Source: Thermoanaerobaculia bacterium (GTDB lineage: Bacteria > Acidobacteriota > Thermoanaerobaculia > Gp7-AA8). Taken from it: DNA of 64,000 nt. The DNA lies in NCBI GenBank assembly GCA_035525285.1, contig DATLFB010000044.1, forward strand, positions 20,293 through 84,292. The letters run 5' to 3'. The notes under the pieces are model-generated. The model searched no databases. It was not told the DNA's origin and was given only the letters and a program-made list of their open reading frames with translations. The position numbers were made by a program, and so were the translations under genes. Position 1 is the first letter of the stretch. Every line of letters begins with the position of its first letter. Positions 9,655 through 12,600 of the stretch are shown piece by piece.

Positions 9655-12600
9655 CTAGGGAAGACCCGCGGCACCTTTCTCGACAAACACGATCTTCGCG
9701 TTGGCAAAGTTTTTGATCGTCGGCGAGAAGATCATGTCATCTAGCGCTCGCCGCTCTCGAATGACAGGAACAGCGGATTTCGTCATCTTTCCGATGTTGA
9801 CGATCATGATGTCTCCCGTGACGTCGTTCCACGCGACGACGTCCGCATAGCGATTTTTGAGACCCAGCGGCCCCTTCGTAAACAGCACTTCCGTTCTGAT
9901 CCGATTGAAGCCACGGGCTTGAAGATCACGAACAACATTCGCCGTCGTCTGCTTCGTAATCGCATCACCAAGACGGCCTCCAGGATTCGGTACTTTCCTA
10001 AATGCGATCGCCACTCCGGCGACTTTCAAAATCCCCTCGCCGATCGCACCTTCAGCGATTTCGTAGGCGCCAGCCGCTGCGTAGCGTCCGGTCTCCTCCG
10101 AGATTCTGCGAAGCCCTTGGTTCTGTACGCGGCTCGCCCGTTCCTGCGCCAACGCTTCGACCGCGCCGATCATCTCGGCTGCTTCGCGATTTGCGCTGTC
10201 GGTCTGCTTCTTCGACTCCGGCGCGATCCGCCGACCGATTTCGGCGCCGGTATCGGACACCGTCTCCCTGACCTCTTCGCGCTTCTGGAAGAGACGCGCG
10301 ATGATTCCCGGCTTCTTGGGAGCGTTCGGATTGACGGCGGGCTTCTTGTCGAGCAGCTCCTTCAGCTCGGTCAGCAACTCCGAGCGTCGTACGAACTCGA
10401 ACTCGCCGAGCTGACGCAGCGCCGCGAGGATCTCCTGGCTGCGCTCGATCCAGTAGTCGTCCGTGCCCGTGGGATCGCGGCGGTCGACGGGATTCGATCC
10501 GGCGAACGAGTAGAGATTGCTTGAGTCGACGTAACCCTTCGGATCGGGTGAGAGCCATGAGCCGCTCAGCGGCTGATACCAGCGTTCGCGGACGTAATTT
10601 CAGGCCGGTGAGTGGTTCGGCGTACGGATGCGCGTGGAGGCGCGCGCTGAGGATGTCATCGAGGGGAGTATCTGTGCCAGTTGCGCCTAACAGAGCCAGA
10701 CCTTCGACCTCGTAGAGCTTCGTCGTGCGCTCTTCGCCACCAGGGATTCCGGAGAGGAACGACAAGAGTGACGAGAGTGACTCGCGCACTTCGATTGGAA
10801 GCTGCGGCGATGAGTAGAGCGGCTTTGTCGAGGCCGCCCACTGCGGCGCGGGAAGAACCGGAACGTCGGCGCCCCACGCCGAAGCCCGCAGTTCGTTTGT
10901 CACGGCGATCGAGATCGCCGCGGCGCCTGTGGTTAGCGTCGCGTATTCACTCGAGGAGAGCGTCCACCGAGCAGTGTTGGCGTCGGCGAGCGATGGCGCA
11001 GCCGAGGATGTGCGAATGACCGCTCCGTTGGCATCGACGGCGGCCAGACGGACGCCGCTCGGCAGCGATGCCGGCGCGATCGCCTCGGTTGACCGCATCG
11101 TCACCTCAACACTATTGAGCGTGCCGTCGGAGTTCTTCGTCGCCTTGACCGCAACGCGATCGATCGCCGCCCCGGCGAGGTCCAGGTCTTCGCCGCCGAA
11201 AGGATCGTTACTCAGATTCCTGCCGACGATCTCCCCCCTCTTGTTGACGACCGTCTGCAGCGATCCCGCACCGGCTTCGTCGTAGATCGGGTAGAGGTAG
11301 TTGACGGTGTTCGGCGCGAGCGGATCGACCGTCGCCGTTTCGATCGGGTCGTCGTACGACATCCCGCCGTGAATGACCTGCTTGAGGATTCCGCCGTGCG
11401 GATCGCTCGCTACCGCTCCTGCTTTGGCCAGTGTGATGAGGCGATCGCTGATTGCGTCCCACACGAAGGTGACTTCGGGTGCGATACCGTCGGCTTTGAT
11501 CACACTCGCGCGGTCTTCGAGGAGCCAGTCGGTTGACGATGGATCCGCGACGGCCGTGTATTCCGCGCGCCGGCCCACGAGGCGGCCGGTTCCCGAATAG
11601 CTGAAGACCACGCGCCGCTTCGGTGCCCCGGTTGCCTTCTCAGTCGACACGATGAGGCGGCCTTTCGCATCGAACGTGTACACAAAGCGCCCGTCGTCGA
11701 CCACTTCCGCGCCGCCATAACCAAAGGGATAGACGTTCGGCCCTCGCGTCACGCGATCGATCTTGTGTCCACCGCCCGCCCGTTCGCCAATCGTCTTCGT
11801 TGGAGGATCGCCCGGCGCCGCGGTGCCGCCGCTGGTGAGCTGTTGGACGCGCTCCTGTGCCGTGCGGAAGTCAGCCGGCGTGAGCTCTTCCCTGGCGCGT
11901 CCCGGGATCGGTGCCGATGGATCGGCATTCGGATCCACTGCACCGAAAAGAGAAGCGGAGAGCCGGCCGCGCGTATCGTGACGCCAACTCGTATAGCGAT
12001 CTCCGCCGGAGATGCCGAGGAGCTTAGCGTCGCTCTTGTGCAGGCCGTCGTGAGTGACTTCGCTGCCGGCGATGACGAGGCCATTTGCTGTCACGACGAG
12101 CTCGTTCATGAGGGAAGTCGTCGGGTGATAGCCGTACGTGCGGACGATGGGCACGCCGGGCGTGGTTGCAGAGACGCCGGCGAAGACCGTTCGCGCATCG
12201 GGTCGTCCGGCGTTGCGATAGCTTCCCGTCATGAGAGCGACGGCCGACGGCGCAGACGGATCGCCGACCTTGCCGAGAAGAATCAGGTTCCCCATCGCGT
12301 CGTGCTGCTCGCGGATCCACTTCGACCACCCCGGACCAAACACGAGGCCCGCGTACGCCGGCATCGACCAGTGCGTCCGCTCGCCGTGCTCGTTCCACTG
12401 GTGCTGCTGCACGTACTCATCGAGAACGACCGCCGACGATGTCAGGCCGGTGCCGTCCTTGAAGCGTTTCTGCGTGGTCTTCTTCGGGTTGCCGTCGAGA
12501 TCGAAGTCACTCCAGGTGACTTCCGCGTCTTTGTTGAGCCACGACACGATCCGTCCCGCGGAGTCGTATGTGATGCGATCGAGAACGTCGCCCAAAGCAT

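Follow-up and report, generated by a model that had tools for sequence, protein, structure and literature searches.

For Rhs1 of P. laumondii, a T6SS (type VI secretion system) effector, it is known that the C-terminal plug closing the barrel is an aspartyl-protease domain and that cleavage follows two DPLGL motifs (PMC8636562). In the D1338N mutant of this protein, C-terminal cleavage is abolished and toxicity is reduced (PMC8636562). Here, we analyze a giant gene of the Rhs family on the minus strand of a 64,000-nucleotide (nt) stretch of the Thermoanaerobaculia bacterium contig DATLFB010000044.1, which we refer to as the window. The gene, open reading frame (ORF) 2, encodes a secreted Rhs protein of 5,907 codons, and its reading frame is interrupted by one extra base within the Rhs-associated core. 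In our view, the break most likely goes back to a genuine insertion of one base that took place very recently and by which the giant Rhs toxin of the sample's dominant genotype was disarmed. A sequence-only reading of the window had listed three explanations, i.e., a sequencing or assembly indel, a real inactivating mutation, and a +1 recoding site; following the analyses below, the second of these is the best supported.

Reading frames across the break

At the break, the minus strand reads ..CAC GCG CAT CCG TAC GCC GAA CCA CTC ACC GGC CTG AAA TTA CGT.., with the codons CTG at 10603-10601, AAA at 10600-10598 and TTA at 10597-10595. The long frame of ORF2, listed as ORF 10052..28306, reads ..LHAHPYAEPLTGL and then KLRPRT.. 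up to a stop at 10052-10054; a peptide of this out-of-frame junk tail is KLRPRTLVSAAER. The +1 frame, in turn, reads NYVRERWYQPLSGSWLSPDPKGYVDSSNLYSFAGSNPVDRRDPTG beyond its TGA, followed by a tip of 269 residues and a TAG stop at 9657-9655. The elements on which the sequence-only reading was built (the long frame running into about 180 junk codons, the A3 run, the TGA and the stop at 9655), coordinates included, are thus all present in the sequence.

The Rhs-associated core is not in one frame with the shell, and a continuous core is obtained only after skipping one base, i.e., ORF2 is a disrupted member of the family. The piece in the +1 frame alone scores 42.7 bits against the profile TIGR03696 (Rhs_assc_core), the match covering positions 32-75 of 76. 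When nt 10600 is skipped, the core junction is restored just as had been proposed, and the TIGR03696 match crosses it, now covering positions 23-75 and reaching 51.3 bits (cut-off 32.5). Without the repair, the 0-frame reading across the junction shows no match.

The sequence-only reading had located the break at the very end of the core, i.e., at the boundary to the toxin. This has to be corrected: the break is located within the core domain itself, at a distance of 45 codons upstream of the cleavage motif DPTG, such that both DPxG motifs (DPKGY and DPTGT) are 3' of it and are lost with the tip. Given this position within the core and 5' of both motifs, part of the plug of the shell is therefore lost besides the tip. 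Nor does the placement "exactly" at a conserved motif carry weight, being no more than chance for a single event, since any one indel must hit some position; breaks in conserved motifs are the kind that a reader can recognize.

A check proposed along with the sequence-only reading, namely the comparison of orthologous loci, supports a real mutation. All 15 homologous proteins (45-83% identity) cross the junction in one frame as ..P(Y/F)xEPxTxxxY(V/A)RxRW(Y/F).., with the consensus ..AxPFxEPxTGxxYVRERWYDPxTGTWLSPDPxGYxDSSNLYAFAGGDPVNxRDPxG, where the residue at the shift position differs among homologs (N, D, F or V). Two further loci, L003 (a JGI contig) and L004 (a Thermoanaerobaculia metagenome-assembled genome, JBAZBK010000032), are likewise in frame. 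That is, the break is found in 0 of 17 relatives. On the DNA level, the two nearest relatives read CTG AAT TAC (L001) and TTG AAT TAC (L004), whereas the window reads CTG AAA TTA C, i.e., it carries one A more. A contig of a more distant relative, from run X7, spans the site with 73 nt compared to 74 in the window.

For dating the break, we aligned the repaired window, L001 and L004 codon by codon. In the 52 codons past the break, read in the +1 frame, the window differs from L001 by 2/2/21 changes at the first/second/third codon position. Within these 52 codons, the codon changes assigned to the window lineage divide into 12 synonymous and 0 non-synonymous ones. If changes were random, 22% of them would be synonymous there, and the chance of 12/12 without constraint is about 1.6e-8. 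In the 105 codons 5' of the break, window-specific changes are 14 synonymous and 7 non-synonymous. Purifying selection has thus acted on the downstream frame for practically as long as the window lineage has been separate. Judged from this pattern, the break is very recent, or compensated, or an artefact, but not an old pseudogene.

The extra base is also present in an independent assembly. A single public run, SRR8556377 (soil metagenome, 2019), contains the ORF2 gene, and its Logan assembly holds a contig of 2,016 nt with a word depth of about 255x that is identical to window positions 9017..11032, including the AAA and without gaps. The contigs flanking this cassette contig have depths of 263x (downstream) and 297x (upstream) and are therefore part of the same abundant genome. 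No minor-allele or alternative Logan contig covers the break site in this run, where it has to be considered that contigs drop rare variants. Besides, the depth of the cassette contig is slightly below that of its neighbors; this small deficit could be noise or could reflect a minority of genomes without the cassette. In the index, we did not find the same strain in other samples in which AA or AAA could be read; the runs X4, X5, X7 and X8 contain distant relatives only.

Consequences of the probable insertion and rival readings

According to the reading we prefer, an AAT (Asn) codon in the part of the gene that encodes the Rhs core gained one A, turning AA into AAA. Ribosomes would then read ..PLTGL and continue into 182 out-of-frame, Arg-rich codons. 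The resulting product would lack the last 45 core residues (the shell-closing plug), both DPxG autoprotease motifs, and the 269-residue tip with its restriction-endonuclease-like toxin domain. That is, the weapon would be disarmed and the shell probably unsealed. The N-terminal part of about 5,700 residues (signal peptide, immunoglobulin-like (Ig-like) arrays and most of the shell) would be left intact, as would the downstream immunity gene, which would lose its translational coupling to the toxin frame. The earlier suggestion of a disarmed toxin with shell and immunity gene kept thus holds for the immunity gene, which is intact, but goes too far for the shell, whose last 45 core residues (the plug and the aspartyl-protease motifs) are lost as well.

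For annotation, this means that the locus is to be treated as a frameshifted (pseudo) Rhs toxin gene, in which the protein of 6,084 residues and the separate ORF of 240 residues would both be artefacts of the break. The locus would provide a small and clean example of a bacterial weapon that is disarmed while its immunity gene and a large adhesin-like body are kept. Such a route is expected for strains that no longer pay for the toxin yet need to survive kin. For a polymorphic toxin gene, a recent loss of frame is nothing out of the ordinary, and none of this would come as a surprise to a specialist.

Several points speak against a recent inactivating insertion and have to be weighed here. First, the evidence consists of contigs, and both the window and the Logan contig probably stem from the same reads, which leaves room for a systematic read error or a sizeable minority with AA. 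Second, the 12:0 pattern of codon changes fits an artefact, or a frame that is still translated via slippage, equally well. Third, no second sample of the strain is present in the index, and fixation of the allele would be conjectural. Finally, the loss of function itself is what the broken frame predicts.

Among the rivals, a sequencing or assembly artefact would imply that the organism has AA and an intact gene, the extra A resulting from read errors, polishing or the assembler. We consider this unlikely. It is true that the site is a short homopolymer and that the downstream frame looks functional, as in a live gene, i.e., besides the 12:0 changes, the match to the toxin family and the immunity gene are intact. 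However, Logan is a second assembler based on a k-mer graph, and it arrived at the identical sequence at about 255x without an alternative contig. A de Bruijn contig at such depth implies accurate short reads, and with these an indel in a 3-nt run enters the consensus only very rarely. Furthermore, the two giant genes of the window comprise 37.6 kb without a single frame break, namely the 20.4 kb of the upstream gene ORF1, which is indeed as unbroken as had been stated, and the 17.2 kb of ORF2 before the break. Given the identical contig, the lack of an alternative contig and these unbroken ORFs, assembler error or an indel-prone assembly, the first explanation of the sequence-only reading, is therefore unlikely by now.

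A second rival accepts the mutation as real and adds a partial rescue by unprogrammed, low-level +1 slippage at AAA-UUA, by which few molecules would be armed. It refines the reading as a recent insertion, is compatible with it and involves no evolved mechanism, but we regard such a rescue as improbable to about the same degree as the artefact. A shift is possible only exactly at the AAA (tRNA-Lys moving from AAA to AAU), since the TGA shuts the +1 frame one codon earlier. AAA and UUA, which could act as the slippery P-site codon and the slow A-site codon, are present, the latter codon being very rare in the two giant genes (6/12,709 codons, 0.47 per thousand), and hungry rare codons generally raise +1 slippage, as at Ty1 and prfB-type sites. 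The +1 frame is open, and the residue at the site is variable. On the other hand, tRNA-Lys re-pairing from AAA to AAU leaves a third-position mismatch, and the efficiency of the slip is a supposition. Across the junction, a +1-shifted product would carry the peptide ..EPLTGLKYVRER.. or ..EPLTGLNYVRER... The more specific claim that the extra A accidentally made a working +1 slip site, from which most of the surface protein would emerge unarmed and a small share as fully armed Rhs toxin (..TGLKYVRER..), is in our view very unlikely. If true, the site would be a newborn recoding site in a polymorphic toxin, seen before stimulatory elements evolved.

Still less credit can be given to programmed +1 frameshifting, in which tRNA-Lys slips from AAA to AAU with the rare UUA in the A site, such that the ratio of armed to unarmed protein is set via ..TGLKYVRER... 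In Euplotes, AAA-UAA sites rely on this AAA-to-AAU slip in the P site; moreover, the +1 frame opens at precisely the codon required, with the TGA just before it, and Lys at the variable shift position would probably be tolerated. Still, the break is absent from all relatives, the closest of which carry a plain AAT codon. Within the 20 nt upstream of the site, there is no GGAGG-like sequence that could act as a Shine-Dalgarno-like stimulator, the fold of 10520-10640 is no better than that of shuffled sequences (z = 0.15), and no Rfam family matches. The UUA arises automatically when an A is inserted into AAT-TAC. Programmed recoding, the third explanation of the sequence-only reading, is thus not supported, because the site is not conserved in relatives, lacks stimulator and structure, and owes its rare UUA to the insertion itself. 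Phase variation or transcriptional slippage would also require a longer run than A3. In the literature, we found nothing specific on frameshifted or recoded Rhs genes.

Lastly, we rejected the idea that the break is a recombination breakpoint, as the similarity to L001 and L004 goes on for about 105 codons past it and the module boundary is located near PNAPKKPG.

Toxin tip, immunity gene and surrounding locus

The features of the locus are listed in Table 1. The tip is modular, i.e., about 60 residues past DPTG are common to relatives with other toxin domains. Similarity to L001 and L004 stops near PNAPKKPG, and the toxin domains beyond differ; this end of similarity near PNAPK(K/E)PG is likely a recombination boundary for toxin swapping. 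That is, relatives share the Rhs core and differ in the tip, as is characteristic of a variable C-terminal toxin.

Table 1. Coordinates of the features discussed (window positions and strand).
Feature	Position	Strand	Details
A3 run holding one extra A	10598..10600	-	relatives: AA within AAT Asn codon; window CTGAAATTAC, L001 CTGAATTAC, L004 TTGAATTAC
TGA closing the +1 frame directly before NYVRER	10600..10602	-	read from the sequence
Out-of-frame tail now encoded past the break	10052..10600	-	182 codons, 25% Arg; no family match
Rhs core, final 45 codons (shifted to the +1 frame)	10465..10599	-	NYVRERWY..DPKGY..(18 residues)..DPTG; C-terminal plug and aspartyl autoprotease signature; TIGR03696; motif invariant in 15 homologs
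N-terminal part of the tip	10018..10464	-	mostly helical linker or pre-toxin region; first ~60 residues common to L001 and L004
C-terminal toxin domain	9658..10017	-	VPNPGGRLG..RYADVV..IVNIGK..PVIRERRALDD; unclassified family, predicted restriction-endonuclease-like fold; stop 9655-9657
Immunity-type gene	9109..9654	-	181 residues, intact; ATG directly after the stop of the tip
ORF2 body, 0 frame	10601..27775	-	TTG start, Sec-type signal peptide, Ig-like arrays, RHS/YD-repeat shell, first part of the Rhs core; end ..HAHPYAEPLTGL
ORF1, giant gene 5' of ORF2	27772..48195	-	6,807 residues; Ig-like, CarboxypepD_reg, LVIVD and F5/8 type C domains; unbroken
Upstream copy of the ~155-nt direct repeat	10932..11088	-	inside ORF2, encodes ..STEAIAPASLPSGVRLAAVDANGAVIRTSS...; 94-98% identity to the other copy, 3-nt indel
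Downstream copy of the repeat	8893..9046	-	orphan remnant of an Rhs C-terminal region past the immunity gene; blastx 79% identity to ORF2 residues 5556-5618
Transposase gene	7635..8834	+	rve_3 integrase core and HTH_32; beside the orphan remnant

Neither the toxin domain nor the immunity protein has a sequence match in Pfam, NCBIfam or PDB. The family of the toxin domain (last 120 residues) comprises 252 representatives at E<=1e-3 after clustering at 50%. Among the 150 matches listed, nearly all have the domain at the C-terminus or close to it, the proteins being up to 2,287 residues long, and the long family members scanned are RHS-repeat proteins in 5 out of 5 cases. Invariant residues of the family are PNPxGxxG, R..D, G and PxxRERxAxxD. 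The AlphaFold (AF2) model of the domain has a mean confidence (pLDDT) of 84.9 and the topology alpha-beta-beta-beta-alpha-alpha-beta (H-E-E-E-H-H-E). Nearly all of the top 50 Foldseek hits are PD-(D/E)xK nucleases, headed by AF1548, MGME1, Bax1, R2 endonuclease, Can2 and Cas4, where scores are weak (best E 4e-3, TM 0.45). The domain has an invariant D in RYADVV and a K/R in (N/Q)xG(K/R), with no acidic residue at the usual position. Based on the predicted fold, we have moderate confidence that the toxin is a nuclease, its activity being a prediction from these structural matches. The window gene carries a widespread toxin domain that is outside all Pfam models and probably has a restriction-endonuclease fold.

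The ORF directly downstream of the tip fits a cognate immunity gene, as suggested by the gene order in other genomes: its homologs adjoin homologous toxin domains downstream in L005 (35% identity, 4e-31) and L006 (31%, 3e-6). An internal sigma-70 promoter for this gene was not found. The GC content is 0.54 for the toxin domain and 0.58 for the immunity gene compared to 0.66 for the gene body, which points to a horizontally shuffled module.

A segment of 2.04 kb with shell end, core, tip and immunity gene is bracketed by the two copies of the direct repeat; the break is located well within this unique segment. Logan merges the repeat into a contig of 86 nt at 513x, i.e., at twice the flanking depth, which corresponds to two copies. 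Repeat homology of this kind permits cassette exchange by recombination, and the cassette could be exchanged or deleted via the repeat of about 155 nt. The transposase gene, beside which the orphan Rhs remnant ends, probably truncated this remnant; inverted-repeat ends of an insertion sequence (IS) were not convincingly identified. Downstream of the IS, at 6428-6598 on the minus strand, we observed a short YD-repeat-like fragment that is 38% identical to ORF2 residues 4326-4381, with an HTH_3 regulator gene (5814..6353) overlapping it on the other strand.

The true start of ORF2 is the TTG at 27775, which is preceded by the ribosome-binding site AAGGAA and overlaps the stop of ORF1 (TGA 27774-27772) in ATTGA. 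Via this stop/start overlap, ORF1 and ORF2 are translationally coupled, their combined coding sequence amounting to about 38 kb on a single strand. The N-terminus of ORF2, LTRIGIALSLTLLLCAGAFA followed by QQ, is a typical signal peptide. Domains identified in ORF2 are Glucodextran_B (eight copies), Big_13, Big_3_3, Big_5 and CarboxypepD_reg, followed by RHS repeats. The RHS/YD repeats of the shell are confirmed by PF05593 (RHS_repeat, 6.6e-15) and TIGR01643 (YD_repeat_2x, 4.9e-5, 23.7 bits, cut-off 15.8), and source records name the homologs of ORF2 'RHS repeat-associated protein'. Similarity between ORF1 and ORF2 was not detected at E 1e-10. We also considered a second frameshift between the two genes, which seem to overlap by 534 nt (27772..28306). 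This was rejected because ORF1 ends with its TGA at 27774-27772 and ORF2 begins at the TTG at 27775 with ribosome-binding site and signal peptide; the overlap is due to an upstream in-frame GTG only.

With the plus-strand ORFs at 54-64 kb left out of the scan, no T6SS, type VII secretion system (T7SS) or other dedicated secretion genes were recognized in the window. Neighboring genes on the minus strand encode a hybrid sensor histidine kinase with a Reg_prop and Y_Y_Y beta-propeller (50898-54113) and a patatin-like phospholipase (2410-3996). The GC content is also low (0.56) over the initial 2 kb of the window, in the surroundings of an asparaginase gene (118..1227).

Comparison with known systems

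Known programmed +1 sites (bacterial prfB CUU-UGA-C, Euplotes AAA-UAA, yeast Ty1 CUU-AGG-C) share with the site in the window a P-site codon that is able to re-pair in the +1 frame, followed by a slow codon. In contrast to these, the site in the window is not conserved, has neither a Shine-Dalgarno-like stimulator nor a structure, and its slow codon is a sense codon made by the insertion.

Orphan rhs-CT/immunity modules 3' of main rhs genes are known from Salmonella and E. coli. The window resembles such displaced modules in that a C-terminal Rhs fragment is repeated 3' of its immunity gene in the same orientation and with 94-98% identity. It differs in that the remnant comprises only about 155-185 nt and ends by the transposase gene, with no orphan toxin or immunity gene after it.

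With PD-(D/E)xK toxin domains (Tox-REase families), the toxin domain has in common the predicted topology, all top structural matches, the invariant Asp in RYADVV and the K/R in NIGK. Unlike these, it has no Tox-REase Pfam match and weak scores only, and the motif around its third strand is (N/Q)-x-G-(K/R) rather than (D/E)-x-K.

The window gene as a whole is related to the Rhs/YD-repeat polymorphic toxins, namely T6SS Rhs effectors (e.g., Rhs1 of P. laumondii and RhsA of P. protegens), WapA, and TcC of the ABC toxins. Like these, it has RHS repeats, a core whose two DPxG motifs directly precede the variable C-terminal toxin, an immunity gene at once downstream, and a toxin/immunity module of lower GC content that is swapped between relatives (PMC8636562). 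It is, however, far larger (about 6,040 residues when repaired) and starts with a Sec signal peptide and Ig-like arrays of about 4,000 residues instead of an N-terminus binding PAAR or VgrG. Its toxin domain is without a Pfam family, and a frameshift is located within its core. In summary, ORF2 and its toxin domain are each a new member of a kind that is already known, the former being an Rhs family gene of about 6,000 residues with a Sec signal and long Ig-like arrays.

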